A DNA stretch of 36,918 nucleotides from an uncultured Clostridia bacterium (GCA_944384485.1 CALWTO010000014.1:1-36918); one strand, 5' to 3'. Shown: positions 1,443 to 25,900, numbered from the stretch's first letter. Numbers and translations: made by a program. The notes: generated by a model from the letters alone, not told the origin.

Positions 1443-1448
1443 ATGCTT

Positions 1449-2927
1449 ATGCAAAAAAGAGGAGAGAAAAAAACAGAGTCTGTTGTGGAATTTAAGACAG
1501 AACAACTTGTTTTACCGGAAATAAAAAAAGATTTATTGACTGAAAAAAAAGTTGATGAAAATTCAACCGCTTTTGTTGATGAAAAAATTGCATTAAAAAA
1601 AGGACAATTATTTTACTCTAATTGCTCCGCTAAAAACAAAAATAAAAATCTAAAAAAAACAAGCATTGTAAAAAATGCTTTAAATTCACATCAATTAAAA
1701 ATAAGGCATGATTCTATTTTTGCGAAAGCAACTACAGAAGAAGAGCAAAAGTTGAAGATGGCAGAAGCCGAGCAATCTGCGTCTAAAAAAAGTAGCAAGA
1801 AAAGTAAATTGACAAATTTAATTTTTTTCTTTGTAAATATAGCTGTTGTTGCAGGAATTTTGGTTTATCAACTTTCCAAAGAAGAATTTGCACCTTTATC
1901 TGGACTTAAATTTAATTTTATAGCAATAATTATTGCTTTATTGTTTTTTGGATTGACCATTTTTTCAGAAACTTTAACAACAAGTTATTTAATGAAGATT
2001 TCCACAGGCAAGTGGAGGTTTGTTTTTTCATATAAGTTGACTTATATTGGAAGATACTATGACTGTGTTACTCCTATGGCAACAGGCGGACAACCTTTCC
2101 AAATAACATATTTAAAATCACACGGAGTCCCACTACATACATCACTGTCTATTCCACTTGGCAAATATATATTTGGACAAATTGCATGGTTTTTCTTAAG
2201 CATAGTATGCTTGATTTATAGTTTTGTAAATCCTACACAAAATACATTTGTTTCTATTACTAGTATTATTGGTTTTGTGCTTGGCTCTGTTTTGTTGGTT
2301 GCGACAGTCTTTTTATGTGTTTGTAAAAGTTTTGGGCATAAATTGGTTGTTAAAACCTTAAAATTACTTTACAAAATGAAAATCATAAAAAATTATGATA
2401 AACAATATGAAAAAATTACCAAATATATTAGTGATTTTCAAGATGTTATGCAACAGTATGCAAAATCACCAAAGGATTTTTTTATCATTGTTGGATTAAG
2501 CATAATTAAAATGATATTTATTTACAGTACACCATTTTTTATTATTTCTTTCTTTAATGGTGGTTTGGAAGGGAGTATGTTTATTCCTGTTTTTGTAATG
2601 TGCTATTTAGTTGACATTGCTTCATCATTTTTCCCTTTGCCTGGTGGAACGGGAATGAATGAAATTTCATTTGCTGCAGCATTTGGCTCAATTGTGGGAC
2701 AAAATAATATTTTAGTTTGGGTTCTTTTGGGCTGGAGATTTTTCTCATATTATATTTATTTATTGCAAGGTATTATCATTTTATCTTATGATTTCAGCAT
2801 AGGAAACAGAAAATATAAATGGCTTGTATGCAAAGAAAATTTAAAAGAAGAAAGCAATCAATTTAAACAAATGCAAATTGATAAATTTAGAAAGGAAAGA
2901 TTAAAAAGAAGAAGTAAAAATGCATAA
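1449..2927 (+). CDS. Flippase-like membrane protein with a lysylphosphatidylglycerol-synthase TM-region (MprF N-terminal/UPF0104) domain and no visible aminoacyl-transferase domain
   Basis: Multipass TM protein with the family motifs VTPMATGGQPFQITYLKSHGV and FFPLPGGTGMNEISFAAAF. A K-rich soluble N-terminal region of about 120 aa precedes the TM part. The track start is 1443; ATG 1449 is preferred because of the promoter geometry. Confidence 0.7.
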   Translation: MQKRGEKKTESVVEFKTEQLVLPEIKKDLLTEKKVDENSTAFVDEKIALKKGQLFYSNCSAKNKNKNLKKTSIVKNALNSHQLKIRHDSIFAKATTEEEQKLKMAEAEQSASKKSSKKSKLTNLIFFFVNIAVVAGILVYQLSKEEFAPLSGLKFNFIAIIIALLFFGLTIFSETLTTSYLMKISTGKWRFVFSYKLTYIGRYYDCVTPMATGGQPFQITYLKSHGVPLHTSLSIPLGKYIFGQIAWFFLSIVCLIYSFVNPTQNTFVSITSIIGFVLGSVLLVATVFLCVCKSFGHKLVVKTLKLLYKMKIIKNYDKQYEKITKYISDFQDVMQQYAKSPKDFFIIVGLSIIKMIFIYSTPFFIISFFNGGLEGSMFIPVFVMCYLVDIASSFFPLPGGTGMNEISFAAAFGSIVGQNNILVWVLLGWRFFSYYIYLLQGIIILSYDFSIGNRKYKWLVCKENLKEESNQFKQMQIDKFRKERLKRRSKNA

Positions 2928-2955: not shown

Positions 2956-3507
2956 ATGAAAATTAATAAATCAAATTTTGGTTGGCTATTTGCTTGTATA
3001 GGGCTATTTATCTTACTTGCAATATCTATTTATCTGGGAGTAAGTGGCTTTTTCTTTAAAACTCAAAATTCATATACAACTGATTTAAAATTGGGACAAA
3101 CTATAGAAGGTGGCTTAAACAAAAATCAAGCAACTTCAATGTCTTTGAATTTTTCTGGTGATTTTTTGCCAGGGGAAAAACTTCCTCAAATTGTTTCTGT
3201 CAAAAATTCAAGTGATGAAGATTTATTTGTAAGAGCAAAGGTTTTTATTTATAATTCACAAAATCAAACACAAGAAATTAATGTCATTGAAAATAGCAAT
3301 TGGAGTAAACAAGAAGATGGCTATTTTTATCTGACTGATTTAATTTCAAAAGAACAAAAAGTTAATTTTTGTTCACACATAATTGCCAGCGAAGATTTTG
3401 TTACTTTAAGTTGGAAAAAATATATTGTTACTTTTGTCTTTGAAACACTTGATAGCGAAAGTGATGTTATATCTTTATGGGGAATAAATCCAATCGAAAT
3501 CATTTGA
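2956..3507 (+). CDS. Exported protein, possibly TasA/camelysin-type (SipW-class signal peptide family)
   Basis: N-terminal K-rich and hydrophobic signal ending in GVSGFFFKT. The block LPGEKLPQIVSVKNSSDEDLFVRAKVFIY resembles the PGD...v.N.g..d.yvRvkv signature of this family. The gene ends in TGA. Confidence 0.4.
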   Translation: MKINKSNFGWLFACIGLFILLAISIYLGVSGFFFKTQNSYTTDLKLGQTIEGGLNKNQATSMSLNFSGDFLPGEKLPQIVSVKNSSDEDLFVRAKVFIYNSQNQTQEINVIENSNWSKQEDGYFYLTDLISKEQKVNFCSHIIASEDFVTLSWKKYIVTFVFETLDSESDVISLWGINPIEII

Positions 3508-4937: not shown

Positions 4938-4966
4938 TTTACATATTTTTCTATTTATGATACAAT
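4938..4966 (+). promoter_or_regulatory. Sigma-70-type promoter (extended -10) for the carrier-protein gene
   Basis: TTTACA (4938-4943), 17-nt spacer ending in TGa, TACAAT (4961-4966). GGAGG RBS and ATG at 4982 lie downstream. Confidence 0.6.
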
Positions 4967-4981
4967 ACCTTTGGAGGAATT

Positions 4982-5218
4982 ATGGAAACAATCGATAAAG
5001 TAAAAAAAATTATTGCGGAGCAATTATGTATTTCAACAGATGATATTGCAGATGACGCAAATGTTGTTGAAGATTTAGGCGCAGATTCATTAGATGTTGT
5101 AGAAATGCTTATGACTTTTGAAGATGAGTTTAAAGTTTCAATCCCTGACGAAAAACTTAAGGAACTTAGCACAATTCCATCAATAGTAAAACTTATTGAT
5201 GAATATAAAAAAGATTAG
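4982..5218 (+). CDS. acpP: Acyl carrier protein (phosphopantetheine-binding)
   Basis: 78 aa and acidic, with the motif LGADSLDVVEMLMTFEDEF; the attachment Ser codon is at 5087-5089. The gene has its own promoter and terminator. I cannot tell whether it is the housekeeping AcpP or a dedicated carrier. Confidence 0.85.
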   Translation: METIDKVKKIIAEQLCISTDDIADDANVVEDLGADSLDVVEMLMTFEDEFKVSIPDEKLKELSTIPSIVKLIDEYKKD

Positions 5219-5257
5219 ATTTCATTTTTTTAATTTGTAATTTTTTTTAAACAAAAG

Positions 5258-5283
5258 TTATGGTTTTATACCATAATTTTTTT
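5258..5283 (+). terminator. Rho-independent terminator after the ACP gene
   Basis: TTATGGT (5258-5264), loop TTTAT, ACCATAA (5270-5276), then T7. Confidence 0.55.
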
Positions 5284-5313
5284 ATTTTATTACTTTAAAG
5301 TATTATAGATTTC

Positions 5314-5342
5314 TTTACTTAATTCTATTTTTATGATAGAAT
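5314..5342 (+). promoter_or_regulatory. Sigma-70-type promoter (extended -10) for the ligase-acyltransferase operon
   Basis: TTTACT (5314-5319), 17-nt spacer ending in TGa, TAGAAT (5337-5342). RBS AAAGGA and ATG at 5377 lie downstream. Confidence 0.5.
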
Positions 5343-5376
5343 AAAAATGTTGATAATTGTATTTAAAGGATGAAAA

Positions 5377-6975
5377 ATGGAGAATATGACTTGTTACGAA
5401 ATGCTTATTAAAAATTGCAACTATAAAAAAGGTGCAATAATCTTTAATAAGCATAGAATTACAATGGAAAAATTTATTAAAGATATAGATGCTTTCGCGG
5501 AGTCTTTACATAATTTGGGATTTAAAAAAGGAGATGTTTTAACAATTTAGTTGCCTACATGTCCTCAATCGCTTGTTGGGTTTTATGCTTGTTCTAAATT
5601 AGGAATTATTGCAAATATAGTGCATCCCTTATTTCCATTGGACCAACTTAAAGACAATCTAATAAAAACAAAATCAAAAGGTTTGATGTTTTATGATATA
5701 TTAATTAAAAATCACAAAGAGCTTATAGGTTTGAATCAAATTTTAATAAGTTGTTCAATAGCGAATTATGTTTTTTTTAGAAAAGGAATTTATTATTTAT
5801 ATACTAAAATTAAAAGCAAAGCATGCAAGCGCACGTTAAAATATTCTAAACTTATAATGCAAAAACCTATCTATAACATAAGTAAAAAGAAAATTCTTCC
5901 TATTAAAGGTAAAAGCGAAGATGTGGTTTGTACAATGCATAGTGGAGGAACAAGCGGACAACCAAAAATTGTATGCTTAACAAATAAAGCTTTAAACAAT
6001 TTAAGCGTGTCACTTGAACAAATGTATACGAGAAAAAACCGTGGAAATGAGTATGGACTTGTTGCTTTACCTATGTTTCATGCTTATGGGTTAGGCGTTT
6101 CAGTTCATACTTGTTTGACAAATAAATATAGTTTAATTTTAGTTCCAAAGTTTTTGCCAAAAGAAATCAATAAATTAATCAAATATCACAATGTTACATT
6201 TATGGCTGGTGTTCCTATTATGTTTAAAAAAATGTTGGAACAAAAAAACTTTAGAGGTAGTTATTTAAGTAAATTAAGAGATTTGTGGTGTGGTGGAGAT
6301 GTTTTAAACGAGTCTTTTGTGGAATATTTTAACACGATTCTTGAACATTACAATGCTCCAGCAAGGCTTATGAGGGGGTATGGATTAACAGAAGTTTCAA
6401 GTGTTTGTGCAGTAAATACTTTTGAAAATTATAAAAAGTTTAGCTGTGGAAAAGCAATTCCTAATACTACAATTGAAATTTGGGACGAAAACGAAAAAAA
6501 ATTAAAAGCAAATTCAATTGGTGAAGTTGTTGTAAATTCTCCATCTGTTATGAAAGGTTATCTTGACGGCGATGGATTTGTGCAAAAAAATGATAAAATT
6601 TGGATTAAAACAGGTGATTTAGGTTACTTAGATGAGGAAGGATTTTTATTTATTTTAGATAGAAAGAAGAGATCAATAAAAATTAGTGCTGTAAACATTT
6701 TCCCTTCAGAAATAGAGGATGTTGCAAAAAATCATCCAGATGTAGATGAAGCATGTGCAGTTGCTTATCATTACAAAGAAAAGGTTTATATTAAACTTTA
6801 TGTTACATTAAAAGATGACCAACTTAATAAAGAAAAAATCAAACGAGAGATCTTTGCTCTTTGTGAGAAAAAATTGATTAAGTATTCATGGCCTCGATTG
6901 ATTGAAATCATTGATGAAATGCCTAGAACTAATTTTGGAAAAGTCGATTATAAAAAATTTGAAATGTTAAGGTAA
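5377..6975 (+). pseudogene. AMP-dependent synthetase/ligase (FadD/acyl-CoA- or acyl-ACP-synthetase-like, ANL superfamily) interrupted by one in-frame TAG at 5548-5550
   Basis: ATG 5377 opens 57 family-like codons (…GDVLTI). TAG follows, and the same frame then continues (LPTCPQSLVGFYACSKLG…) for 474 codons. All core motifs are present: SGGTSGQPK (5941-5967), GYGLTE, TGDLGYLDEEGFLFILDRKKRSIKISAVNIFPSEIE, PRTNFGKVD. The track's TTG start at 5551 is the codon immediately after the TAG. Confidence 0.6.
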
Positions 6976-6979
6976 AAAT

Positions 6980-8257
6980 ATGATTAAACAAAAAACTTTA
7001 AGTTTAAATGAAGAAACAATAGATGAAAAAAATGATTGCAAAAATTTGAAAGAAACAAAAAGAATTAAAAGTATCGACAGATTTAGGGGATTTTGCGTAT
7101 TTGCAATGCTCATTTTCCAATTTTTAAAAAATTTTCCTAGTTTGGGATTTTTTTCTAGACTCGCAGATCACAGTTTGGAAAATGGAATAGTAATTTTGCC
7201 AGGTATGACTCTTGCTGACATCATTGCACCTGCTTTTATTTTTGCTATTGGGCTAACTTTTGCTCTTTCCTTCGTAAAATGGGAAAAATTATATGGAGCT
7301 AAATACGCTATCATTCATTATCTAGAAAGAGCACTTTCTATTATTGGGCTTGGGACTTTTCTTGCCCTTTGTAATAAATTTTTGGATATGTTTGGCGGAA
7401 ATTACACTTTAAATGCATTTGACTGGACTGTTTTTGCTTTTTCGGTTATTGCGTTAATAGGCTTAATATTAAGACTTTTAGCCTTGATTCCTGCATGGAA
7501 GAAAAAACTTTCGCCTGTTGCCGAGCAAATTTTTTACATAGCTTTGTCTTGTCTTGGTATTATGAATTTGATTATAACTTCAATTGATTATGCAAGCGTT
7601 GTAAATGGCAGTGCTTTTATGTATAACTATTGGGTTACATTGCAAGATATAGGTTTTGCAATATTGCTTGCTTTTCCTTTTGTCAAAGCCAAATCTTGGG
7701 TTAAATTTCTTGGCGCATCTTTAATTACGATCGTTTTTTCAATTTATCATCAAATTGGCAACAACCGTGAACTTCTTGATGTGATTGTGCACGGAGGTAT
7801 TGTTGGTGGATTTGGTTGGGGCGCAATGCTTATTTTTGATATGTTTATTGCTGACCTTTATTTTAAAGACAATAAGATAGCCTTTATTGTATCTGCTTTA
7901 TTTTGTGCAGTTGGAGTCATGGCAACGCAATGGCTTGGCACAATAAATATGGGGAGTTGTTCTCCAACTTTTATATTAGTTGGGGTTGGTTTAAGTGGTT
8001 TAATTTTTGAAATTTTTGAAGTTACGGACAAATATTATAAATCAAAATTTGATCCGCTTGTATGGTGGGGTAAGAATCCTATCATAATGTTTTTAGTTGA
8101 ATTTTTCGTGATAGGTGTTTACACATCACTCATGCCTGCATCCGCTTTGGGAGAAGCACCAATTTGGCTTGCAATAATACAAGGAGTGATAGCAGTTGTG
8201 GCATTAACTGCATTTACATACTTACTTGCGAAAAAGAAAAAATCAATAAGTTTATAA
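6980..8257 (+). CDS. Multipass membrane acyltransferase-like protein (HGSNAT catalytic domain / DUF1624-DUF5009-like), paralog 1
   Basis: The start lies 4 nt after the ligase stop. The signature RIKSIDRFRGFCVFAMLIF, at least 9 predicted TM helices and LPGMTLADIIAPAFIFAIGLTF fit the R.xS.D.xRG motif of heparan-alpha-glucosaminide N-acetyltransferase-like proteins. Confidence 0.6.
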   Translation: MIKQKTLSLNEETIDEKNDCKNLKETKRIKSIDRFRGFCVFAMLIFQFLKNFPSLGFFSRLADHSLENGIVILPGMTLADIIAPAFIFAIGLTFALSFVKWEKLYGAKYAIIHYLERALSIIGLGTFLALCNKFLDMFGGNYTLNAFDWTVFAFSVIALIGLILRLLALIPAWKKKLSPVAEQIFYIALSCLGIMNLIITSIDYASVVNGSAFMYNYWVTLQDIGFAILLAFPFVKAKSWVKFLGASLITIVFSIYHQIGNNRELLDVIVHGGIVGGFGWGAMLIFDMFIADLYFKDNKIAFIVSALFCAVGVMATQWLGTINMGSCSPTFILVGVGLSGLIFEIFEVTDKYYKSKFDPLVWWGKNPIIMFLVEFFVIGVYTSLMPASALGEAPIWLAIIQGVIAVVALTAFTYLLAKKKKSISL

Positions 8258-8269
8258 AAGGAGATGATT

Positions 8270-9649
8270 ATGAAAAATAAAGAAAATCAAAATATGCCTA
8301 ATCAAGAAAGCTTGATTGAACAGCAAAATGCAAATTTGCTACAGTCAAGCAACGAAGAAAATGTGACAACAAAGAAAAAAACAAAAAAAGAAAAATCAAA
8401 AATAATTGAAAATCAACCATCAAATAATGCCAAAACAGAAAGAATTCTTTCAATCGATAGATTTAGAGGATTATGTATGTTTCTTATGGTTTGCTCTTTT
8501 ATTTTACCAATTTTCTCATGTTTTAACTTTCTTGCTCCAATTGTAGAACATGGAGATGCTGGTTTCCAAGTTTTACCAGGAATTTCTTTTGCAGATTTAT
8601 TCGCTGCAATGTTTATTTTTGTAATTGGATTAACAATTGTGAAAAGTTTTAAGTCAAGGGAAAGTAAATTTGGTACTAGAAGAGCGTATTTACAACTTGC
8701 TGTCAGATTTTTATGTTTAATTGGACTTGGTTTGCTTTTCAATGGGTTTGAAAATGCTTGGGTGGATATCTTCTTGGGCGATTCAACATTTGCAGATCTT
8801 TCTATACAATTGAAAATCTATGCTGTAGGATTTTGGATTGCTATTGCTTTAGCAATTGTTCTTCTTGTTTCAAAATTTGTTAAAAATGAAAAATTTAAAG
8901 TTGTAGCAAGCTCTTTATTTAAATATTTTGTTGCAATTATTGGAATATGTGGTTTATTCTTCATTTTGGTTGCAACTGCAGAGAAAGTTACACCACCAGT
9001 AGATGGCAATAGATTTGGTGGTTGGGAGTGGGACACTCTTCAAAATATTGGACTAGCAGGACTTTTAGCTCTTCCATTTATTAGATTTGATAAATGGGGT
9101 AGATTAATTATAGTTGGTATTACATTTACAGCGTTAACCATTCTTATGCAAGCAGGACTTTTCCCACTTGCAAACTCAATTCTTGAAGGTGGAATAATAG
9201 GTGGATTCTGCTGGGCTTCAATTCTTTTAATGGGCTCTGTTTTTGCAGAATTAAAAGATGACAATAAAAAATATTGGATTCTTTCTTCATTATTTCTTCT
9301 TTTAAGTGTTATTTTAATCGTTTCTTTTAACGTTACTGCAGCAAAAAGAGGTTGCACTCCAGTTTATGCAATATTCTGTATCTCAATTTCATCTATGGTT
9401 TGGGCGGGACTTAATCAACTTAACAACTGGAAACCAAAATTTGATTTCTTTGCAATTTGGGGAAGCAATGCAATTCTTACTTATATTTCAACTATATTTG
9501 TAGTGGGAATGATATTTGGAGGACTATTGGGCGAACAATTAGTAAATCTTTCTATTTGGGCAGCTCTCCCTATAGTAATTGCTTTCTTGGCTGGATTTAC
9601 AGTGATGAATTGGTTGCTTAAGAAAAATAATAAATATATTAGAATATAA
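8270..9649 (+). CDS. Multipass membrane acyltransferase-like protein (HGSNAT/DUF1624-DUF5009-like), paralog 2
   Basis: AAAGGAG RBS (8257-8263) sits 6 nt before ATG 8270; the track start at 8264 abuts the RBS. Motifs shared with paralog 1: RILSIDRFRGLCMF, LPGISFADLFAAMFIFVIGLT, TLQNIGLAGLLALPF, EGGIIGGFCW. Confidence 0.6.
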   Translation: MKNKENQNMPNQESLIEQQNANLLQSSNEENVTTKKKTKKEKSKIIENQPSNNAKTERILSIDRFRGLCMFLMVCSFILPIFSCFNFLAPIVEHGDAGFQVLPGISFADLFAAMFIFVIGLTIVKSFKSRESKFGTRRAYLQLAVRFLCLIGLGLLFNGFENAWVDIFLGDSTFADLSIQLKIYAVGFWIAIALAIVLLVSKFVKNEKFKVVASSLFKYFVAIIGICGLFFILVATAEKVTPPVDGNRFGGWEWDTLQNIGLAGLLALPFIRFDKWGRLIIVGITFTALTILMQAGLFPLANSILEGGIIGGFCWASILLMGSVFAELKDDNKKYWILSSLFLLLSVILIVSFNVTAAKRGCTPVYAIFCISISSMVWAGLNQLNNWKPKFDFFAIWGSNAILTYISTIFVVGMIFGGLLGEQLVNLSIWAALPIVIAFLAGFTVMNWLLKKNNKYIRI

Positions 9650-9685
9650 ACTTATTGTTAAAATTTTCTTCGATTAGTAAAAAAG

Positions 9686-9720
9686 AGCCATAGTAAAATC
9701 TATGGCTTTTATATTTTTTT
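9686..9720 (+). terminator. Rho-independent terminator ending the ligase-acyltransferase operon
   Basis: AGCCATAG (9686-9693), loop TAAAAT, CTATGGCT (9700-9707), then TTTATATTTTTTT. Confidence 0.65.
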
Positions 9721-9783
9721 GAATTCTACAATATTTGACATATTTTAACATTTTTATTCATAGGTTATCGCATGGAGGCATCT

Positions 9784-10041
9784 ATGAATAAAGATTTGCT
9801 GGAAAGAGTGTCAATGCTTGCAAATCATATTCTTTCCACTCATGATACTATAAGAAAAACTGCAAAAATTTACGGGCTTAGCAAAAGTACTGTGCACAAT
9901 GATATTTCAAAAAAATTATATAAGACCGATCGAATTTTGTATTTAAAAATTCATCAAATTCTCGATGTAAATTTTGCAGAAAAACATATAAGAGGTGGAG
10001 AGGCGACTAAACAAAAATATGCAAAAAATAAAACTTGTTAG
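9784..10041 (+). CDS. spoIIID: SpoIIID-family sporulation transcriptional regulator (HTH)
   Basis: GGAGG (9774-9778) lies 5 nt before ATG 9784. TIRKTAKIYGLSKSTVHNDISKKL and AEKHIRGGEATKQKY closely match the B. subtilis SpoIIID blocks VSKSTVHKDL and IRHLRGGEATK. The gene ends in TAG. Confidence 0.8.
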   Translation: MNKDLLERVSMLANHILSTHDTIRKTAKIYGLSKSTVHNDISKKLYKTDRILYLKIHQILDVNFAEKHIRGGEATKQKYAKNKTC

Positions 10042-14005: not shown

Positions 14006-14197
14006 TAAATAAAATATTTTTTGAAAATTATATGAAAAGTTGTTTAATCGTTTGTATTTTTGTCGCTAATTGTAGTAAAATAAATTTAGAAAACTTAAAT
14101 CAATTATTGTCTTGGTAAACGTTAAGAAAAAATTTTTGTTTTTAATAGTTTTCATTTTACATAGAGTCTAGCAATTTTTATTTTGTGTGAGGTTGTT

Positions 14198-16876
14198 GTG
14201 GTAAGAATTATTCCAAGAAAAACAAAAGTGAAAATGGAATTCGTCCGTGGCTTTACTGTCATGGATTTAGTTTTGGCTGTGCTTGTGGCTGCAATTTTAA
14301 TCGTTTTGATTGCATCCGATTTTGATGGACATATTTGGGTTGCAATTGTTTGGGCGATTTTTGGTATTTCATTATTTTTTAAAATTTCAGATACCGATCG
14401 TTTATACATAACTTATGTGCATATTATTCGATACTCAATGCAGAAAAAAGTTTATGAGAAACATCCAAAAAATAATAAACCAAATATTAAAGCAATTGTT
14501 CCATTTGAAAAAATTTATCAAGACAGATTTATCAGTTTTGGAGAATATTATGCCCAAGTGCTTGAAGTAAAACCAATTTTGTTTGGTCTGTTAAATGAGT
14601 ACAATCAAAACAATGTTATTGATGTTGGATTTTCAAATGCTTTGCGTAGACTTGAAGAAAGTCAAGTGTGTGAAATAGTTAAAATCAACAAGGCAATGGT
14701 TCTTGATAATTATGCTTACAATGAAAATAAAAAATTTGATAGACTTCTTGAACAGGTTTACGAAAAGCAAATGACTCAAAGTGAACTTGATGCAAGAGAA
14801 CCTGTTTTTCAAGAAAGACTTTCTTTTATTGAAAGCAGAAACAGAAAAGAAAAAATTTACAAAGACTATTTTTACATTGTTGTTTTAGGCAAAGACATTG
14901 AGGCTCTTGAAAATACAATAAATGGTATGGCTAGTGCTTTATCAAGTTCGCTCGTTCCTGTTGAAACAAAAAGACTTACCGGTGCTGAACTTGCAGTTTT
15001 CATTAGAGCAAATTACAACAGAGAATTTAATGAAAGAGAAATAGAATCTGTTTCTTACATTGATTATGTAAATTGGGCAACCCCAGAAAAAATTAAATTT
15101 AAATCTGCAAAATATAGTGTGGATGACAAATATTACAGAACTTTTGTTATCAATGAATATCCTCTTCAAGTTGGCAATGCATGGGGAGCATCATTCTTCC
15201 TTCTTGACAGAACAAAAGTTGTCATGAAATTTAAAAAAGCACAGAAATATGAAAGTGAAAGAAAAATAGATAAAGCCATAATGGATATGGAAAGCAAACT
15301 TTACAAAACAGGAAAGAGCAGTACGCAAATTGAAATCAAAACACACCTTGACACTTTAAGAAACTTGCTTACTGAACTTAAAAACAATAACCAGCAACTT
15401 TATGATGTAAACACTTTTATTACATGTGAAGATACTGCAAGAAAAGATGTAAAAGCAGTTCTTAAACAAGAGGGCTTCAGATTTAGCGAACTTTACGCAA
15501 GACAAATTGATGCTTTTATTTCTTCAAATATTTCAATGAGAGATAATATGCCAGAACTTCAAAGAGGATTTCCTACTTATACTCTTGCTGGCGTGTTCCC
15601 TTTCGTTTCCTCAGAATTGCAAGATGAAAATGGAATTTATATTGGTGACAATGTTTATCCTGTTTTTGTAGATTTCTTCCAAAGAGATTCTCAAAGAGTT
15701 AACTCAAATATGATGGTTATTGGTAAGTCTGGTTCAGGTAAATCTTACGCGATAAAAATGCTTCTTGCAAATTTTGCTGCTGACAACACAAAGATATTTA
15801 TTTGTGACCCTGAAAAAGAATATTACAAATTGACTGAAAGTTTGAAAGGAAAACTTATTGACGTGGGATCTTCATTGCAAGGAATTTTAAATCCTTTCCA
15901 TGTTATAAGGGCACTTGATAAAGATGATGATGAAAACGATTATGCATCTAAATCGGATTATTTCAAAGTGGAAAAGAAGGATGACTCTTTCAATCAGCAT
16001 TTACAATTCCTTGAGCAATTCTTTAGAACTGTTCTTGAAGGGATTTCATCCGATGCGTTCGAGATTGTAAACTCTTTGGTACTTGAAATGTATGCACGCA
16101 AAAAAATTGATGAAAACACGGATCTTAAAAAATTAAAACCAACCGATTATCCTATTTTTGATGATTTATATAACTTGGTTAAAGAAAAATTGGAAACTTC
16201 AACAAATGAGTTTTATTCTAAAAATTTAAGAATCGTTGAGGCTTACATAAGAAAGTTTGCAAAGGGAGGCAGAAACTCTAACCTTTGGAATGGACCAACT
16301 TCTATTGAAACAAATGAAAATTTTGTTTGTTTCAATTTCCAATCTCTTATTGCTGGAAACAATGATATGCTTACAAATGCTCAAATGCTTTTAGTATTTA
16401 AGTATCTTGAAAATGAAATCATCAATAATAAGGATTACAACACTTTACATAATACCAACAGAAAAATCATTATTGCAGTTGATGAAGCTCACACATTTAT
16501 TAACCCTAAATATCCTATCGCATTAAACTTCATGACTGCTATGGCAAAGAGAATTCGTAAATATGGTGGTATGCAAATTGTTATTACACAAAATATTAAC
16601 GACTTCGTTGGTTCTGAAGAAATCAAAAGACAGTCTACGGCTGTCATAAATGCTTGTCAATATTCAATTATTTTCTCTCTTTCTCCAAACGATGTAAACG
16701 ACCTTATAGAACTTTACAAAAACTCTGGAGGTATAAATAAAGAGGAGCAGAACTCAATTGTTACTGCTCAAAGAGGACAAGCTTTTGTTATAACTTCTCC
16801 AACTTCAAGAACAATGGTACAAATCAGAGCTCTTGATTATGTTGAAAATATGTACGAAGATAAAAAGAAAAGATAA
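14198..16876 (+). CDS. VirB4/TraE/PrgJ-family type IV secretion ATPase with a fused N-terminal PrgI/VirB3-like two-TM module
   Basis: GAGG RBS lies 5 nt before GTG 14198; the track uses TTG 14183 and ATG 14231 is also possible. PrgI-like N-terminus RIIPRKTKVKMEFVRGFTVMDL plus two TM helices. VirB4-type blocks: YRTFVINEYPLQVGNAWG, Walker A GKSGSGKS (15722-15745), Walker B IIAVDEAH (DEAH at 16481-16492), RKYGGMQIVITQNINDF. Confidence 0.8.
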   Translation: MVRIIPRKTKVKMEFVRGFTVMDLVLAVLVAAILIVLIASDFDGHIWVAIVWAIFGISLFFKISDTDRLYITYVHIIRYSMQKKVYEKHPKNNKPNIKAIVPFEKIYQDRFISFGEYYAQVLEVKPILFGLLNEYNQNNVIDVGFSNALRRLEESQVCEIVKINKAMVLDNYAYNENKKFDRLLEQVYEKQMTQSELDAREPVFQERLSFIESRNRKEKIYKDYFYIVVLGKDIEALENTINGMASALSSSLVPVETKRLTGAELAVFIRANYNREFNEREIESVSYIDYVNWATPEKIKFKSAKYSVDDKYYRTFVINEYPLQVGNAWGASFFLLDRTKVVMKFKKAQKYESERKIDKAIMDMESKLYKTGKSSTQIEIKTHLDTLRNLLTELKNNNQQLYDVNTFITCEDTARKDVKAVLKQEGFRFSELYARQIDAFISSNISMRDNMPELQRGFPTYTLAGVFPFVSSELQDENGIYIGDNVYPVFVDFFQRDSQRVNSNMMVIGKSGSGKSYAIKMLLANFAADNTKIFICDPEKEYYKLTESLKGKLIDVGSSLQGILNPFHVIRALDKDDDENDYASKSDYFKVEKKDDSFNQHLQFLEQFFRTVLEGISSDAFEIVNSLVLEMYARKKIDENTDLKKLKPTDYPIFDDLYNLVKEKLETSTNEFYSKNLRIVEAYIRKFAKGGRNSNLWNGPTSIETNENFVCFNFQSLIAGNNDMLTNAQMLLVFKYLENEIINNKDYNTLHNTNRKIIIAVDEAHTFINPKYPIALNFMTAMAKRIRKYGGMQIVITQNINDFVGSEEIKRQSTAVINACQYSIIFSLSPNDVNDLIELYKNSGGINKEEQNSIVTAQRGQAFVITSPTSRTMVQIRALDYVENMYEDKKKR

Positions 16877-16909: not shown

Positions 16910-19900
16910 ATGATAAACATAAAGAAATTTAGTTTGTTCGCATTTAGTTTGTTAATGGTGTTAACAAGCCTCTTTTTCGTTGCATGTGGTAAAGATGATT
17001 TTAGCAATGTTTCACTTTCAGTTTCTAATTCCGCAGTTGAATTACAAGTTGATGAAAGTGTTGATTTGACTTTCACAATAAACAATATGCCCGAAAATAT
17101 GAGCAATGAACTTGTGTTTGAATTTTCACCTGCAGGCATTGCGAAAGTGGAAATTATTTCTTCAAGTGTAGATCAAATTAATGTAAGAGTTACCGGCGTT
17201 GAAGCGGGATCAACTGTGATGGCGGTAAAGACAAAAGAGGGATTAAAAACTTGCAATGTTAGCATTTTTGTTACGGAATATTCTTCCTTTTTAGAGGCAA
17301 ACGAGAACAATCTTTATGTTTCTACAAGTGATGATTTAACAATAAAAAATAGCGATTTTGTTTTTGGTGACAAAGTAAACGAAAAACACTTGGATTTTTA
17401 TTTTTATGGATTTAATGCAGAAGGAAATGATTTGACTTTAGATGATGTTTCTAGTGTAAACTCAAACAGTCAAAGAAATTTTTTTAATAAATTTGTGTCG
17501 ATTAAACTTATAAATCAAAATGAAAAAAGTTATTTAATTTTTAGCGACGAAGAAGGCAATGAATATTCACTATCGCAAGGGCAATATGATTTAAGCCATG
17601 CTGGGAATATAAAATATTCTTTTATTGCTGTTTCTAAAAACAATGATGGTCAATACATTTTAAATAGTGCTTCTCAAGTTTCAGTTGGAGATAAATTTAC
17701 TTTTATTGCAAATTATGAAAATCCAAATAGCAATGAGGATATATTTACGCAAAGGGAATTTGTCGTTTTAAAAGATTTAGATAAAGAATCTTTTGTAATG
17801 GAATATGGTTATGCTATTTTTGATCAAAACAATCCTCAAGCAGGGGCTGAAGAAGAAGTTTATTTTGATGAACAATTTGATAGCAATAAAATAACCCTTG
17901 TTCCTGAATATACAAAAAATCTTGATAACGAAGGAAAGATAGGGTATTATGCGGACTTTAAAAATGCAATAATATCAATTTTTGTTCCTATAGATAATGA
18001 ATTACTTAACTATAAAGTGGAAAGTTCTGTTGAGAATGTATGCAATTTTACTTATCAAACTGTCAAAGTTGCTGGTGGTGTAAATTATGTTATAGACCTT
18101 TCTACTAAGTCAACAGACGTGCAAGATTTTGTTATTAAATTTAGTCTGTTCTATGATGGATTTGAGAGTTCTTCAAATCAAAATGTCTGTGCAAGTATCG
18201 AAATACCTGTTTCAATAAAATCAAAACCAAACCAAATTTGGATTAGTAGCAGCAATTTTTCAAATATTTTAGTTGATAGTAAAACTTTTGTTTTTTATAA
18301 TCATTATTTTTCTAACGACTTGGGCTGGCAAAGATTTTATTTTGCTGTTTCGCCTATAGGTTGCAATTTCTCATCTTTGCAAATTGTTTTACCGGAAGGT
18401 TGTGGATTACAAGTTCGATACAACGGTGTTGTATATCATTCAGGAGATACTGTAGTTGTGAGCAACCTTAAAAACTATGTTGAGTTTAAAGGTGAGGAGG
18501 GAGCTACTGTTTCTGAAAATTCCGCTTTGCAAATCAAAGTGTTATATGACATTTTGATTGAAGGGGAAGAGCTTATAAGTAATTTTAATTATAAAATTTT
18601 GGAAGGACCAACAAATATAGATTTTGAAAATCAAAACTTTAAAACCAAAAATATTGGTCTTACATTAAGTAGCGATGGTGAAATAATAGATTTTTCAAAT
18701 CAAATTTACACGGATGCACTTTTTGAAGATTTTAATGTTGTTTTAAGCTCGGGAAACAATATAGTCGAGTTTGTAAAGTATGAAGAGGTTTGTCAAAAAA
18801 TAGGCGAAAAATATTATTTAAATTTTGGATTTAAAACTTTAAGTACCGGAATTGCAATTTATTCAATAACTTTACCAAATGGAAGTGCAATTTCTGTCAG
18901 CGTAGAAGTGGTTGATGCTTTAAATTATCCTTCTATCTCGACAACAAACAAAAATGCAAATATGGAAATTGTTGATTTCAATGAAGCAAGCGCCACCATA
19001 TATGCGAGATATAATAGTGAGAATGTCGGCTCAAATAATAGTTTTGATTTAAATATTTTATCAAATGGGACAAACAATTCTAATGCTATCAATGATTTAG
19101 AAATTAATATAAACGATAATTCCATAATTAGTATTTCTAATCAAAATGGTTTTGAATTCGACGTTGTTTTAGCAAAAACAGGAACAACCAAACTTGTATT
19201 AAACGTTATAGGTAAAAGAGTTGATGATTTTGTAATTTCAAATTACGAAATTCAGTTTACAATAGATATTGTTGTTTATGAATATATTAAAGAATTGAAT
19301 GTTTATAAATTAAGAGATGGACAAAATGAATCTTATTCTAGTGGAACATCGGCAAGATATGTTTATGTTTATGACAGCAATGCAAATTCTATTTCAAAAA
19401 GACAAGCTCAACTTGAAATAACTGCTTCTCAATATAGTGAGTCCGTTGCACCATATTTATTTAAAAATCCAGCAACTGGAGAATTTGAATATTCTTCATT
19501 TAATTCTAGTTATATTTATTGGACTGTGCCTGGTGGTTATAATGTTTATCTAAACGATATGCTTGTAAGTGATGGAAGAATGTACATTCAAGGCGAAGGG
19601 CAATCTTTATATCAAATTGCTGATTCAAGTGGTATAGTTATTGCAAATTTTGATGCAAGTTCTTTAACTTTAACTTTAACAAAAGATGCATATGCCAATT
19701 TTATACTTGTCGCAAATATTGAACAATTTGGAATAAGTGCTCGTTCTTATACAGTAAATGTTTCTATTTTAAAATATGACATTGTAGAAAGCCTTTCTCC
19801 ATTAACTCCTGTAAGTTATCTTTCTTTCTCAACAATGGATACAACTCAAAAATTTAATTTTAGAGTTTTACAAAATTCAGCAATAAATAAAAATGTTAAA

Positions 19901-22900
19901 ATAAATCTTACAGGTGATTCATTTGTAGAAAATAACAAAACTTATAGAATTTTTGGTGAAAAACAAGCAGATGGAAGTTATGAAAATATTGATGTTGAAA
20001 TAAATGGTAGCGTCGTTAATATAGTTATGACTTTAAATGAAGATTTCCTTAACGCTTCTGCAAATTTAAAAGAATTTAATCCTGTTCTGACAATTGCAGC
20101 AGAAGATTGGTATGATGATACAGGCTATTTATTGGATCAATATAGTGGAAAAGTTATAACATTAAACATCATTTTTGAAAACGGAACAGAGTATAATCCT
20201 TTTATTTTGGATAGCACTGAAGACATTTTAAAAATTAGTGACAATCTAAATGCTCATTACCAAGTTATTACAACTATAGACGTTTCTTCTATAACTAACG
20301 AATTGCCTCTTGGAGAGTTTAACGGAACTATTTCAGGTACAAAAAGTTATTCGAAAATTGTTGGGATTAATGTTTCTTCAATGGAAGTTGCAGAAAATTA
20401 TGTCTATGCTGGGCTTTTTAGTAAACTTGGGAAAAATGCCGTTATTGAAAATTTAATTTTTGAAGGAAGTTTTAATCTTGCAATTAATGCTGATACAAAT
20501 GCTTATATTGGTATAGTTGCCGGAGAAAATTATGGAACGCTTAAAAATGTTTCAGTTAACATAAATTCTTCAAATATCACATTGCAAGGTTCAAGTTTTT
20601 CAAGTGGAGAACAAGCAACTTCTAACAATGCCTATATTGGTGGATTGGTCGGAAAAAATAGCGGAGAAATAATTCAAGACTTTACTGAAATTGATGAAAA
20701 CATATATAAACTTTATGATTATATGTTGTTTATGAATGACTTTTTAAATATATCTTATCAATATTTTAATACTTATGCTGGTGGTATAACAGGTTACAGC
20801 GAAGGAAGTATTAAAAAGATAGATGGAAAAACAATTTATGGTTATTCAAATTATATGGCATATTCATTGATTAGAACTCAACTTTTGCCATTAGAAGATG
20901 GGGAAACAGATTCGGTGTCAAAAGATTATGTAGGGGCAATTGCAGGCTATGTAATAACAAATAATGATAATGTTTTTGTGGCTTATCAATCAAGTGAAAA
21001 TACCTATACAACTACTTCATATTTTGCGGGAAAAGGTATACTTGTTGGTGGTGAAGTGGAAGGAATGAGTTATGTTGGCGGCGTTGCAGGAAAAGTTGAA
21101 GTGGGAGCAAACAGTAGCTTTTTAGGTATATCGTCAAGAACTTTTGTCCGTGCATTATCAGAAAGTAGTAATGCTGGTTTGATTTCTGGAAACATTTCTA
21201 CTTCAAACAATTCAGTTGTAGAGCCAATATTCTTCATGCAAGCCGTTGATGATGGGAAAACAAGTGAAAATTCTTCTATGCTTGTAATCAATTCTGCAAC
21301 TGAAAACAGTATCTTTGGAGCGACTGGTAAACAAGGAACGATTTTAAATAGACTTGCCTTTGGTGTTCAAGGTGTTTTGGTAGATACTTTCAAAGTGGGC
21401 AAAGATGAGAACTATTTTATTACCTATCTATCAAGGGAAGTTGTTAAAATAGGTGAGGACAATCAGCCGATTACAATAACTCCAAATAATTCTTCTATTT
21501 ATTATGGTGAAGCGGTAGTAGTTAATCAAGGTACAATAGTTGAACAATACATTTTTGCAAATAAAGGGCAAACAGAGGACTTAAGTGTAACTGGAAATAT
21601 TAAAGATGCAGAGAGAAATATTATTAACGCATTAAGTTCTCAAAATGGCAACTTGGCTTTTTATGCTTATTTCTTTAATGCTTTGTCAAGTTCAAGTGAA
21701 AGTGAAGTCGGACTAGCTCAAGCACAAGAATTGTTAAATGAAAACTATAATAGTTTAAATGTTGGCGATGAATTATATCCTTTTGTTACGCAAAGCGATC
21801 TATTACTAAAATCGCAGAATACTGATATTTTAAAAATTGACGCAAATGGCAAAATTACTATAAAAGGTACAGGTTGGGCTAGAATTGTAGGGGATAGTCT
21901 TTTAAATGTAAATCAGGGAATTTCTTTCTATATTTATGTTACAAATTATTTCAATCCTGATAAAAATATTTCTATTGTTTATTCAGATTTGTCAACATCA
22001 TCTACTCCTCTTAATCAAGCCACAATTTATATGTTTGCAAACGATACAGCAGTTTTGTATGTTAGACCTAATTATAAATTTGAATCAAAAGACAATGGAA
22101 CAGGGCAGACATTTATTGTTGATTCATTTGGGAACGCTGTGATAAACAACTATCAATTTAATCTTGATCAAAACTCTAGCATCACAGCGGATGTTGAAAT
22201 TAATGAAGAACAATTTATTAAATCCATTTCAGGTCAAACTGTAATAATCACAAAAAAGCAAACTGATGCAAATAATTCTCAATATAATTTAAAAATAACT
22301 CCAATATTAAAAAGTTCTTATAATGGAACTGAATATAAAGTAGAAGTAAATAAAATGCTTACTTCTGTGAATGTGAGTTATTCAAAAGGTGCGGAATCAA
22401 TTGGTTTAAGTACTTATGACAATTTGACTATTTCAACAACTACTGAAGCAAGCGAAACGATCATAATGCGTTCTTCTGCTGATGCAACAGTTGAAGGTGT
22501 TGATTATTATATCACTTATAATAATCAAATTATTCAAGAAGCAGATAGTGAAGATGAATTGTTTAACATTTCTATATCTTTAAATGAAAATTACGATAGC
22601 AATGAATTAATTAAAGAGTATAAATATTCTTTAAAAATAAGTGTTAATAAAGAAAGTGAAGCTTATAAAAATAGGTTCCAGAATAATATTTATGGTCAAT
22701 ATAAAATTGTATTTATTGCAAAAACAAATTCTGCAGTTTACACAACAATGAATTTAAATTTGGAAAATCTGCCATTACAAAATATTGTTATTGATAACTA
22801 TAACGGCTTTGCTGACATGAAAGAAAATATTGGAAATTCAAGTGAATTTGCATACCCTGGTAGCAGTTCTCTTCTTGCTGTGACTTTGTCACCTGAAGAT

Positions 22901-25900
22901 AGTGATTTTGATTACATTGTAATAGAAAATGATGAACAAAATTATCAATCTGGAAATGGTAATGCAGTCTTTGAACTTGCGGCAAGAAAAGAAAATGTTG
23001 AAAGTGGAAAAACATTGTTTGAATCTGGAGTAATTAGTGGTTCTGCTACAAGTAAAGGGCTTTTGATTACAAAAGATGAAATTTTAAAAGTTTACAATGA
23101 TTCTACTTCTTATAAAGATTATTCAGGTGTTGTTTACTTTAAGTACGAAATTGGAAATTCAGGTATAGTAGATGGCTCTGTTTCAAGATTTATAATAAGA
23201 GTTTATAAAGATGGAAATGTTGTAAAATCTTCATCTATTGACTTAACGCTAAAATTGAAAGAAAGTGTTTCTCTTTCAATTGATGGAAAAGACAAAGAAA
23301 TTGGATTTGAATATGATACATATCGTGTTGCTAGAGGGTTGAGATACAAAATCAATGTTAATTCGTATGGCTTTAGCGACGATAATATTGAATTGATTGT
23401 TAAAGATAATCAAAATCTTGTTACTCTTGAAAAAGTTGATGGAGAATATTACATTCAAATAGACAACAGAAATATTGTAAGTAGTTCAATAGCGTCTATT
23501 GAAGTTCATGCATCAAGAATGGATGGAGAAAACGAAATTACCGCAGATAATGTTATTGACCTTATTATAATGAATTATGTTGTTAATTCTAATTTAACTA
23601 CAGATGAAAATCCTGACATTGTAAATGGTATGGATGATGGTGTTATAACAATGCCTATTGGAACAAGCAAATCAATTAAAGTTGATATAAAAGACTATAT
23701 TGAATATGATAGTTCAAATCAATCTGTTGTAGATTTAGTAGAAAGTTTTGTAGAAAGTTTAAATCAAAAGGGCAATTGGAAATATACAAGCAACATAAAA
23801 CCAGGACAAACAGTGCCAGAAGCAGGAGTAGGTGAGGCTAAATATTCTTATACATTGAATAGTGGAGAAAGCAATTATTACTTTAATTATGACAACTTTG
23901 CTTTTGTTCCTGTAAGAATAAATGATCCACAAGCAAATTTGTATTATATTACTTATCAAGGCTATTATGAATTGAATGAAGACAACACAGGTTATGTTGC
24001 AGTTGATAATAAAGAAGGAGCAAATACATTTGCTACTGAAATTCGATTTGATGTTTATGTTTCAAGTAGCGAAGAAACCCCAATTCCTATCTTCAATTAT
24101 CAAGATTTCTTAAATATGAAAGTTGATGGGTATTACATTCTTTTAAACGATATCGTACTTCCATCAAAGGAATATGTTGAAAATAGTGATGAAGTTAATG
24201 ACCAATATATGCCAATGGTTGGAAACTTTGCATCGCTAGATGGAAATGGACATTCTATCGTCCTTGATGGAACTTATGATTTTGGTTCTTCCAGCGATTT
24301 GGCTATTTTCTCATCTTTAGCAAGTGAGAGCATAATAAAAAATTTAAATATAAAACTTCTTTCTTCTTATCAAACATCAAGCGCTGAATTTGGAGTTATT
24401 TTCAAAACTACAAATGCTAATAACAGGGTTGGAATTTTGGTCGCAAGCAACAGCGGAATTATAACAAACTGTAAAATTTCCACTCCAACAAATACATTCT
24501 TTACTATTGAAAGCCCTCTTGCTGGAATAGAAGCGACTTACTTTGGTGGCCTTGTTGGTGAAAATAACGGCTATATTACAAATTGTTCTACTTCAATCAA
24601 TGTAACAGGTTCTTTCAATATTGCTGGCCTTGTTGGTGTCAATAGCGGTAAAATTGCGGCAAGTTACTTTGAGGATGGAATTTTACTGTCAAGTGGAAAT
24701 CAACTTGGTGAATCTTACCATGTTGCAGGGCTTGTAAATAAAAACTTGGAAAATGGTCAAATAATTACAAGCTATGTTACTTCAGGTATATCATCTCAAA
24801 GTCTTTATTCTCAAAATAAAGAAAGTTATCTTTCATCTCCAAATTATTCAGCAGGTTTTGTTTATGACAATGATGGTTTAATTCAAGATTGTTATTCAGA
24901 TATTTATCTTGCAAAAAATGCAAATATGGCTGGCTTTGCTTATATTAATACGAATACAATAAAGAATTGTTTCTCTTTAAGTGTTCTTCAAAATAATACT
25001 ATTGCAGCAGCTGGCTTTGCAATGAGAAATAATGCAATTGATGATGCTGATGAAAATCAAGGTGATAATAGTGGTGAAGGTGTTTTTGAAAATTGCTATT
25101 ATTTATCTGATGAAGAAGAAAACATCAACATAGATTTAAATACAGTTGTTTTTGAAGGTGTTGAGAAGTTAAGTGTTGATGATTTTGCAAACCTTGAAAA
25201 TTTTGAGGCTTATGCTTATAGTAATGTTGTTAGCACTGGTGCTGTTTGGTTCTTCTCAACAAGTGGAGAAAACAATAGCAATTATGTAAAATTTTCTGCG
25301 ACAAGTGAAATTGATTCAGTAGATAACGACAATGGTCTAGGTGTTCAGTATAACACAGTCTATGAAAAAGAATATAAAACATTACCTAAAGGAAGACTTG
25401 AATTATCTGCTCCAAATATTGATGTTTTGTCTGTGCGTAATTTTATCAATGCTGAAGAAAATGTAGAAAATGGAGATATTGTTTACAATTATCAAGATGA
25501 CACTTCAACAGATGCAACAAGTTTTGCAACAAGAGGCTCAATCTATAATCCTTATCTTATATATGACGCTCAAACTATGGAAAGTTTGATTTTGGAAAAC
25601 AGTAATTCGAGTTCAAATTTAAATAGCGAAAATTACAGATTGATAAGTGATATTGATTACAATTCTTATACGCAAAATTCTCAAATTTACAATACTGTTT
25701 ATACCGGAATATTTGAAGGCAATGGTATGGAAATAAGTGCTATTGTTTTGCAATCAAATTCAAATCTTGAAAATGCTGGGCTATTTGCTCAACTTGGAAT
25801 ATCTTCAGCGAAATATGGTGTTATCAAAAATTTAACTCTTTCTCCAGCTAGTGTAACATTCCCAAATGCTTCTTCTGTCGGTGGTGTTGTCGGTTATGTA

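Follow-up and report, generated by a model that had tools for sequence, protein, structure and literature searches.

Do an acyl carrier protein, an adenylate-forming ligase and two polytopic membrane proteins encoded side by side form one pathway that activates an acyl group in the cytoplasm and passes it across the membrane? The question is raised by a 36,918-nt stretch of DNA from an uncultured Clostridia bacterium (GCA_944384485.1 CALWTO010000014.1:1-36918, the whole of which was analyzed and is hereafter called the window), in which positions 4,982–9,649 carry four open reading frames (ORFs) on one strand, encoding an acyl carrier protein (ACP), a ligase, and two membrane proteins that we call memA and memB. 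The original prediction described these four same-strand genes as they are found here, and grouped them into a candidate pathway resembling the Dlt system. This grouping holds in part: the ligase and the two HGSNAT-like membrane proteins make up what comparison across genomes identifies as a conserved unit, whereas the carrier is unlinked to them in other species. In the reading that we prefer, and to which we assign a probability of roughly 0.55, the ligase would make an acyl-coenzyme A (acyl-CoA), from which the two transmembrane acyltransferases would pass the acyl group to an acceptor at the membrane's outer face.

Conservation of the Ligase and Membrane Protein Genes

Relatives of memA were collected from one genome per GTDB species, which gave 74 loci, and these were then compared by all-locus BLAST. 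In a close clade, whose memA proteins are 54–83% identical to that of the window, 33 of the 34 loci that could be evaluated carry the ligase gene, and 27 of 31 carry memB. In a distant clade, consisting mostly of Acutalibacteraceae with memA at 31–38% identity, the corresponding counts are 4/29 and 0/25. The close clade is one of gut bacteria, and its members are uncultured Clostridia or metagenome-assembled genomes (MAGs) labelled 'Christensenella', together with Candidatus Caccovivens and Candidatus Borkfalkia. In other species, more than 40 loci show linkage between ligase and membrane genes, which exceeds chance, and the identities of ligase and memA to their counterparts in the window co-vary (Spearman 0.85, 39 pairs). 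The arrangement is not uniform throughout: the genes are divergent in L052, a gene intervenes in L047, and memA-memB in a Borkfalkia locus lacks a ligase gene within 8 kb. Taken together, these comparisons identify a self-contained and probably horizontally mobile cassette of two to three genes, ligase and memA with or without memB, as the conserved unit. A more mundane alternative offered earlier, namely an acyl-ACP synthetase next to its ACP with unrelated neighbors, does not fit these loci, since the ligase travels with the membrane genes and not with the ACP. Conservation of the neighborhood across genomes, which had been suggested as a check, was thus found for the ligase with the membrane genes and was not found for their association with the ACP.

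The cassette also occurs in the wall-less poultry pathogen Malacoplasma iowae, where the order is memA-memB-ligase (L001–L003; genes at 8001-12571 of L002) and where, although the host lineage is distant, identity to the window proteins is 58% for memA and about 50% for the ligase. This suggests horizontal transfer of the cassette between gut Clostridia and Mollicutes. The flanks of the cassette vary by locus (e.g., RsmE/DnaJ, AcnX, YchF/GAPDH, and HU genes in M. iowae). When the flanking ORFs of 46 loci were clustered all against all, the ligase and memA/memB families and one antisense ORF artefact were recovered, and no other recurrent neighbors such as glycosyltransferases, lipid synthases or flippases. 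A link to anti-phage defence received no support, as neither the ligase nor memA nor memB has a match in PADLOC. The 3-O-acyl bile acids of Christensenella minuta, which are made from short-chain acyl-CoAs (PMC12692188), were considered as a lead to the product and found unsupported, with no C. minuta genome among the 74 loci with a memA relative. Separately, memA-memB was also observed in a MAG labelled 'uncultured Mycoplasma sp.' (L042).

The Acyl Carrier Protein as a Resident Neighbor

The acpP gene (4982–5218, plus strand) encodes a carrier of 78 amino acids in which the Ser of the DSLD motif is present, as had been predicted. It matches PP-binding in Pfam (E 4e-16) and scores 83.7 bits against the NCBIfam model TIGR00517 (acyl_carrier; cut-off 70.45), and merely 17.8 bits against the DltC model. 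Its homologs are 79–92% identical in many species, making it far more conserved than memA (54–83%) or the ligase. The 37-kb window contains no fab or pls genes. By its sequence and its conserved synteny, the protein is a housekeeping-type AcpP, the product of a gene resident in the organism.

The promoter and terminator that had been proposed for the carrier alone were both recovered. A promoter-like site (4938–4966, plus strand; TTTACA-17-TACAAT with an upstream TG) has 10 of 12 consensus matches, is the joint-best of five such 10/12 sites between 4850 and 9850 and the sole one of the five with TG, and is identical upstream of acpP in the sister-species locus L090. Downstream of the gene (about 5253–5281, plus strand), an AT-rich hairpin followed by a U-run folds at −10.9 kcal/mol (z −3.7) and is likely an intrinsic terminator; its stem has fewer than three G-C pairs, and a simple terminator scan missed it.

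Contigs with an identical ACP are conspecific with the window (98.5–99.3% nucleotide identity) and share the order ACP-ligase-memA-memB-SpoIIID. The ACP adjoins the cassette in this species only (7/7 conspecific sequences), and in none of 83 loci from other species does this ACP lie within about 8 kb of a memA relative. Sister species with an 88%-identical ACP keep the surrounding block, comprising Mfd, a 595-amino-acid protein (577 amino acids in L092 and L093), an LPG_synthase_TM protein, an M23 peptidase, the ACP, SpoIIID, an aldolase and HflX. In these species, SpoIIID directly follows the ACP with no cassette between the two; the ACP-SpoIIID spacer is 96 nt in L090 and L091, and similarity to the window resumes at 'ttctaca', near position 9724. 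Because the sister species have ACP-SpoIIID without the cassette, the segment of about 4.5 kb that holds the ligase, memA and memB (approximately 5219–9723, plus strand, as placed by comparison with the empty site) is an insertion beside a resident gene. Mobile-element signatures were not found flanking the insert, where there are merely AT-rich chance repeats, and there is no tRNA or Rfam element near it. Judged by this synteny, the ACP is a bystander, and its adjacency to the ligase arose by insertion next to a housekeeping gene rather than from a shared function. The locus is in this respect a cautionary case, in which adjacency to an ACP carries no functional meaning.

The SpoIIID gene on the far side of the insert, if read from the ATG at 9772 (9772–10041), would encode 89 amino acids, compared to the 82–85 amino acids called in other strains. 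In L084 (14802–15050) a stop codon falls inside this N-terminal extension, and the true start is probably a few codons downstream.

The Ligase

The ligase gene (5377–6975, plus strand) comprises 532 codons plus the stop, in line with the FadD-type AMP-ligase of about 531 codons that had been expected. It contains the AMP-binding (PF00501, E 1.5e-58) and AMP-binding_C (PF13193, E 9.5e-12) domains and belongs to the ANL family, with an acyl- or organic-acid-CoA-ligase type of sequence. Its best NCBIfam matches are long-chain fatty-acid-CoA ligases, MenE and 4-coumarate-CoA ligase (4CL) types, all of which score far below their cut-offs (the best is PRK06187, with 266 bits against a cut-off of 476), so that no equivalog is reached; DltA is not among the best 25 matches. 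Among proteins of solved structure, a PDB sequence search places it closest to 4-coumarate-, o-succinylbenzoate-, feruloyl- and fatty-acyl-CoA ligases. Sequence and fold narrow its type no further than 4CL, MenE and fatty-acyl-CoA synthetases, and it has no close characterized relative. Intact orthologs have all of the ANL core motifs: MHSGGTSGxPK, FHAYGL, GYGLTE, TGD and DRKKR and the A10 Lys of P-R-T-x-x-G-K show little or no variation across 19 family members. The claim that the ligase is FadD/4CL-like rather than DltA-like is supported by these sequence relationships.

The accompanying suggestion of a fatty acyl-AMP ligase (FAAL) received no support. Residues 180–526 are colinear with residues 177–527 of 4CL and have no extra segment, and the alignments to MenE and fatty-acyl-CoA synthetases are colinear too. 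The AlphaFold2 (AF2) model of the ligase (pLDDT 88.5) superposes best on CoA ligases in the CoA-bound, thioester-forming state (5bsr, 5x8f and 1pg4; TM about 0.8), and its top 50 structure matches include no entry described as a FAAL; it also resembles the acyl-ACP synthetase structure 8i8d (TM 0.74). Alignment and model thus give indirect evidence for an ordinary CoA-ligase type without the FAAL insertion.

Intact orthologs of 526–532 amino acids adjoin memA in other loci. At 45–50% identity, by contrast, relatives of the ligase stand alone, beside Trk genes, in other Clostridiales, and the cassette ligase was probably recruited from this broader standalone family. The family, an uncharacterized group of 'acyl-CoA ligases', has conserved Cys residues and a WCGGD motif. 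Two members with about 48% identity (L094 7001–8569 and L095 7001–8578) lie alone between a phosphoribosyltransferase gene and trkA/trkH.

The Membrane Proteins

The memA gene (6980–8257, plus strand; 425 amino acids) begins 4 nt after the ligase gene. The memB gene ends at 9649 on the same strand and could start at either of two ATG codons, that at 8270 giving 459 amino acids and a gap of 12 nt after memA, and that at 8264 giving 461 amino acids and a gap of 6 nt. The start at 8270 is preferable because GGAG occurs six bases upstream (8260–8263), and with this start the gaps are the 4 and 12 nt reported before. The two proteins are full-length paralogs (29% identity over 416 residues, E 5e-47), and the predicted R-x-x-S-I-D-R-F-R-G signature is found in both, as KRIKSIDRFRG in memA and ERILSIDRFRG in memB. 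The N-terminus of memB is disordered and rich in Lys, Asn and Glu. In Pfam, memA scores 25.7 bits against HGSNAT_cat (PF07786; gathering score 22) and has no match to Acyl_transf_3, and memB has no match above threshold (Acyl_transf_3, 17.3 bits against a threshold of 31). The memA family is rare, with 1,550 of 1.84 billion cluster representatives recovered at E ≤ 1e-3 and 126 at E ≤ 1e-30.

The assignment of these proteins to acyltransferases rather than transporters, which the original prediction had left to be checked, is borne out by profile and fold matches to HGSNAT and GWT1. An AF2 model of memA built with 19 homologs (pLDDT 83.8, pTM 0.84) matches human HGSNAT (E 2e-5, TM 0.54) and GWT1 (TM 0.51–0.53) in Foldseek searches of the PDB, and the next matches are assorted transporters with TM below 0.2. 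When the memA family profile was run against PDB sequences, HGSNAT was the sole match (E 3.8e-7), colinear from the DxxR motif to the C-terminus.

A 2025 analysis of the transmembrane acyltransferase (TmAT) superfamily defined the residues lining its acyl-CoA pore as DxxR in transmembrane helix (TMH) 1, FxxxxG in TMH2, an Arg in TMH3, a Gly in TMH6 and a Tyr in TMH9 (PMC12423673). The counterparts in memA are D33/R36, F86 to G91, and R117; those in memB are D65/R68, F117 to G122, R148, and Y407. In an hmmsearch alignment with HGSNAT, which is colinear, the TMH1 motifs are matched to each other and R117 of memA to R345. Among 74 memA sequences, D33, R36, Q47, H64, F86 and R117 are at least 95% conserved, and the same is true of D65, R68, H96, F117, G122, R148 and Y407 among 33 memB orthologs; G91 of memA is the consensus residue, yet it is absent from the list of positions conserved at 95% or more. 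Two further positions recall HGSNAT. Q47 of memA, 11 residues beyond the TMH1 Arg, takes the place of an important Asn of HGSNAT. The loop that follows TMH1 contains H64 in memA and H96 in memB, where HGSNAT has a luminal His, a match made by sequence position and across a 6-residue insertion. This loop is predicted to face outward because the N-terminus is rich in Lys and Arg, and the AF2 model agrees. By hidden Markov model, fold and pore residues, memA is a member of the TmAT superfamily of the HGSNAT_cat type and not a transporter, and both memA and memB look catalytically competent.

A Proposed Mechanism and Its Alternatives

We hypothesize that the cassette works as follows. The cytoplasmic ligase, as a member of the ANL family, would activate a carboxylic acid with ATP and form its CoA thioester, the acid probably being a fatty or other organic acid. 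The acyl-CoA would then enter the cytoplasm-facing pore of memA and memB, as the conserved CoA-site residues and the structures of HGSNAT and GWT1 imply, and the acyl group would cross the membrane to reach an acceptor on the outer face, with the outward conserved His taking part. The cryo-EM structures of HGSNAT are dimers, from which we infer that memA pairs with memB, possibly acting as a heterodimer, and that in loci lacking memB it pairs with itself. Having a ligase of its own would make sense for such a system in a host that does not otherwise provide the needed acyl-CoA, as may be the case in a Mollicute. The donor is more likely acyl-CoA than an acyl-carrier protein because the acyltransferases keep the CoA-binding residues of HGSNAT and AT3 proteins (PMC12423673). 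As for the acceptor, M. iowae is wall-less and the proteins have no extracellular domain, and therefore a molecule embedded in the membrane or close to it, for example a glycolipid, lysolipid or other lipid, or a lipoprotein, is more likely than peptidoglycan or wall teichoic acid. Confidence in any specific acid or acceptor is low.

A more far-reaching version of this scheme can be offered tentatively. The cassette might be a portable 'activate-and-export' device of a hitherto undescribed kind, in which a dedicated CoA ligase feeds a heteromeric HGSNAT-like pair that places an environmental fatty or organic acid onto an outer-leaflet lipid or a host-derived molecule, requiring neither carrier protein nor flippase. 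Such a device would be exchanged between gut Clostridia and gut-dwelling M. iowae and would be recurrently switched off by nonsense, homopolymer-slippage and deletion mutations. Lysolipids released by host phospholipases, which would be re-acylated, glycolipids, and sterols are examples of acceptors that would suit it.

Several observations weigh against the acylation of an outer-face acceptor from ligase-made acyl-CoA. The structural likeness of memA to HGSNAT is moderate, with a TM of 0.54 and 14% identity. The TMH9 position, which is Y407 in memB, is F371 in memA, although the change is conservative, and the TMH6 Gly was not placed reliably in the profile alignment. In five close-clade species the cassette is ligase-memA and memB is missing, which means that a heterodimer is not obligatory. 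The partnership is also clade-specific, given that ligase relatives at 45–50% identity stand alone and that distant memA relatives are mostly without a ligase. Every genome has an ACP somewhere, and synteny alone would thus still allow an ACP to be used in trans. Finally, the cassette may be decaying in this species, given that three of seven sequences have lesions in the ligase or memB.

Among the alternatives, one is that the membrane proteins serve uptake. In such a vectorial acylation, memA and memB would be channels for an external acid, and the ligase would trap it inside by converting it to a CoA thioester, as FadL/FadD or FATP do, with nothing acylated outside. The tight operon linkage of a ligase to polytopic membrane proteins would be expected of such a system, standalone relatives of the ligase are widespread in Clostridia, and the hosts are small-genome gut organisms, including a Mollicute dependent on external lipids. 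However, the fold and profile matches are to acyltransferases alone, with transporters below a TM of 0.2, and the CoA-site residues and the outward His are at least 95% conserved in both paralogs, which a passive channel would not need. We consider uptake unlikely on these grounds, and retain outward acyl transfer as the preferred reading.

A second alternative, that the cassette no longer functions in this strain, turns on an in-frame TAG codon at position 58 of the ligase (5548–5550, plus strand), which replaces the Tyr of the motif T-I/L-Y-L-P-T. The codon is TAT in all six conspecific contigs and TAG in the window strain alone, and the Tyr is invariant in 19 family members. We considered that TAG might be a recoded codon and ruled this out, in view of the TAT in 6/6 conspecifics, the invariant Tyr, and the fact that acpP itself ends in TAG (the stop codons used in the window are 16 TAA, 2 TAG and 1 TGA). 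The TAG is therefore either a private T-to-G nonsense change or a base-call error. Restart at TTG 5551 would give a product without the first 58 residues, including conserved strands of the N-domain. Short of a sequencing error at the TAG, this strain probably has an inactive ligase and a pathway that is off or crippled. Any such inactivation would be very recent, because the rest of the window ligase is undamaged and 80% identical to that of the next species.

Other lesions occur within the species. In contig L085, an independent nonsense change lies in the P-loop of the ligase (Q195, CAA to TAA), and an A7 homopolymer in the N-terminal region of memB (8375–8381 of the window, plus strand) has become A8, shifting the frame; in L088, a deletion has removed 35 bp of memB, at about window position 8743. 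Thus, three of the seven conspecific sequences have a lesion in the ligase or memB, compared to just one comparable lesion in about ten flanking genes of the same contigs. This pattern is suggestive of recurrent switching-off or decay of the cassette, with assembly noise being another possible source, as the sample is small and comes from metagenome assemblies.

It could be supposed, then, that the cassette is a decaying, non-functional remnant in this strain, or else that the TAG arose by faulty assembly and the cassette is fully functional, the four-gene adjacency being without pathway meaning either way. The nonsense codon at an invariant Tyr, the independent lesions in L085 and L088, and their excess over the flanking genes speak for this view. 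Against it, the ligase is intact in five and memA in all seven of the conspecific sequences, so the ligase is not dead in all strains, a point that the original prediction had singled out; the remainder of the window ligase is undamaged and close to that of the next species; and the cassette is conserved across dozens of species. Its probability is about as low as that of uptake. Least probable of all is the Dlt-like, carrier-dependent scheme in which the adjacent ACP is charged by the ligase and the resulting acyl-ACP serves the membrane proteins as donor for outward transfer, for although the ACP is immediately upstream on the same strand in all seven conspecific sequences, the phosphopantetheine arm is common to CoA and ACP, and the ligase model resembles an acyl-ACP synthetase, this ACP is absent from the vicinity of memA in other species, adjoins SpoIIID without the cassette in sister species, matches AcpP and not DltC, and has its own promoter and terminator, while the acyltransferases retain residues whose counterparts in HGSNAT and AT3 proteins contact the adenosine and pantothenate parts of CoA (PMC12423673), and equivalents of the MBOAT protein DltB, DltD and DltA are absent.

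Transcription Signals of the Cassette and Other Genes in the Window

A candidate promoter of the cassette (5314–5342, plus strand; TTTACT-17-TAGAAT with TG) has 9 of 12 matches and rests on consensus alone; promoter-like sites in the region number 32 against a shuffled expectation of 24.5, barely above it. The cassette is closed by an intrinsic-terminator-like hairpin (9683–9710, plus strand) with an 11-bp stem, four G-C pairs and a T-run, which folds at −14.9 kcal/mol (z −4.3) and is stronger than the hairpin after acpP.

The G+C content of the window is about 30%. The presence in it of SpoIIID, the M23 peptidase, a class-II aldolase, HflX, rpoB and rpoC makes the host look like a spore-former-related Firmicute. 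Upstream of acpP, a protein of 494 amino acids (1443–2927, plus strand) has the LPG_synthase_TM (MprF-type membrane) domain alone, with no aminoacyl-PG synthase domain, and is syntenic in sister species. Near it, two genes have no Pfam match: one at 75–1376, which is the part of the 595-amino-acid protein left by truncation at the window start, and one of 183 amino acids at 2956–3507. Downstream of the cassette, a TraG/HerA-like P-loop ATPase of 897 amino acids (PF19044, DUF87; 14183–16876, plus strand), found at the same place in conspecific and sister contigs (L085, L090–L093), directly precedes an ORF of 3,478 amino acids (16910–27346, plus strand) with no Pfam match at E ≤ 1e-4. Toward the end of the window, a tRNA-Glu(CTC) on the minus strand (35783–35857), alone among plus-strand genes, is followed by a gene for a patatin-like phospholipase (PF01734, E 1.6e-32; 35993–36826, plus strand).

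Significance and Comparison With Known Systems

No bacterial DUF5009/HGSNAT-like protein has a demonstrated function (PMC12423673). For one clade of bacterial proteins of the HGSNAT/DUF1624/DUF5009 type, the cassette ligase offers a built-in clue to function, and a dedicated ligase makes this uncharacterized branch experimentally tractable. The occurrence of the cassette in both walled Clostridia and a wall-less Mollicute points to a membrane lipid or lipoprotein as acceptor. If the proposed mechanism is true, gut organisms would have a new means of altering the bacterial surface or the outer leaflet. The literature was searched for a partnership of a ligase with DUF1624 or AT3 proteins, and nothing was found; in a review of AT3 proteins (PMC9558356), a text search for 'ligase' or 'synthetase' gave no mention.

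The closest known protein is human HGSNAT (heparan-alpha-glucosaminide N-acetyltransferase; PDB 8JKV, 8VKJ), which is both the sole PDB family recovered by sequence profile and the best fold match to memA. The two share the DxxR and FxxxxG motifs, the TMH3 Arg, an amide residue (Q47 in memA, Asn in HGSNAT) placed 11 residues beyond that of TMH1 DxxR, and, if matched by position, a conserved His in the putatively outward loop after TMH1 (PMC12423673), and the mechanism expected of memA is the same, with cytosolic acyl-CoA entering and the acyl group being delivered to the other side. However, memA lacks the N-terminal luminal domain, has only 14% identity, and has Phe in place of the TMH9 Tyr. 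Further, memA and memB are two paralogs genetically coupled to a dedicated ligase, whereas HGSNAT is not so coupled. Bacterial DUF5009-type relatives are shorter (about 320 amino acids), and the memA profile matches them in two stretches, skipping the central part.

The second-best fold match, GWT1/PIG-W (PDB 8XIJ, 8XIK), the inositol acyltransferase of glycosylphosphatidylinositol synthesis, is a TmAT whose donor is a long-chain acyl-CoA, palmitoyl-CoA, and whose acceptor is a membrane lipid acylated on the opposite side of the membrane (PMC12423673), and thus provides a precedent for a fatty-acyl donor combined with a lipid acceptor. It lacks the Asp of DxxR, which memA and memB have, and the catalytic His, for which they have a candidate, and there is no match at the level of sequence. 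GWT1 is eukaryotic and draws on the general acyl-CoA pool.

The AT3 acyltransferases (OatA, OafA/OafB, Oac, IcaC, TmaT, and OpgC) belong to the same superfamily and share the concept of an acyl-CoA pore (PMC9833829, PMC12423673). Standalone members of this family, such as TmaT, act on lipid-linked or lipid acceptors (PMC9558356). By contrast with AT3 proteins, memA and memB fall below the threshold of Acyl_transf_3 and have no SGNH partner domain.

In Aas (acyl-ACP synthetase/2-acyl-GPE acyltransferase) with LplT, as in the cassette, an ANL ligase is coupled to a membrane acyltransferase, there for the re-acylation of lysophospholipids, and the ligase domain of Aas is a detectable relative of the cassette ligase (NF006386, 139.6 bits). 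However, the acyltransferase of Aas is of the PlsC type and acts at the inner leaflet, using ACP after LplT flips the lipid, whereas the cassette has acyltransferases of the TmAT fold, no PlsC domain, and no linked flippase or ACP.

The likeness to Dlt, from which the question started, is one of logic only, in that adenylation depends on ATP and occurs in the cytoplasm, and a polytopic acyltransferase moves the acyl group across the membrane. The parts differ: DltB is an MBOAT protein, DltA is a ligase specific for D-alanine, DltC is a dedicated carrier encoded in the operon, and DltD is required. All of the parts that define Dlt and were tested here, namely a DltA-type ligase, a dedicated DltC, and an MBOAT DltB together with DltD, are absent. 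The targets of Dlt are teichoic acids, which M. iowae does not have. If the mechanism that we propose is true, the cassette would represent a second architecture, parallel to Dlt, for exporting an acyl group activated with ATP.

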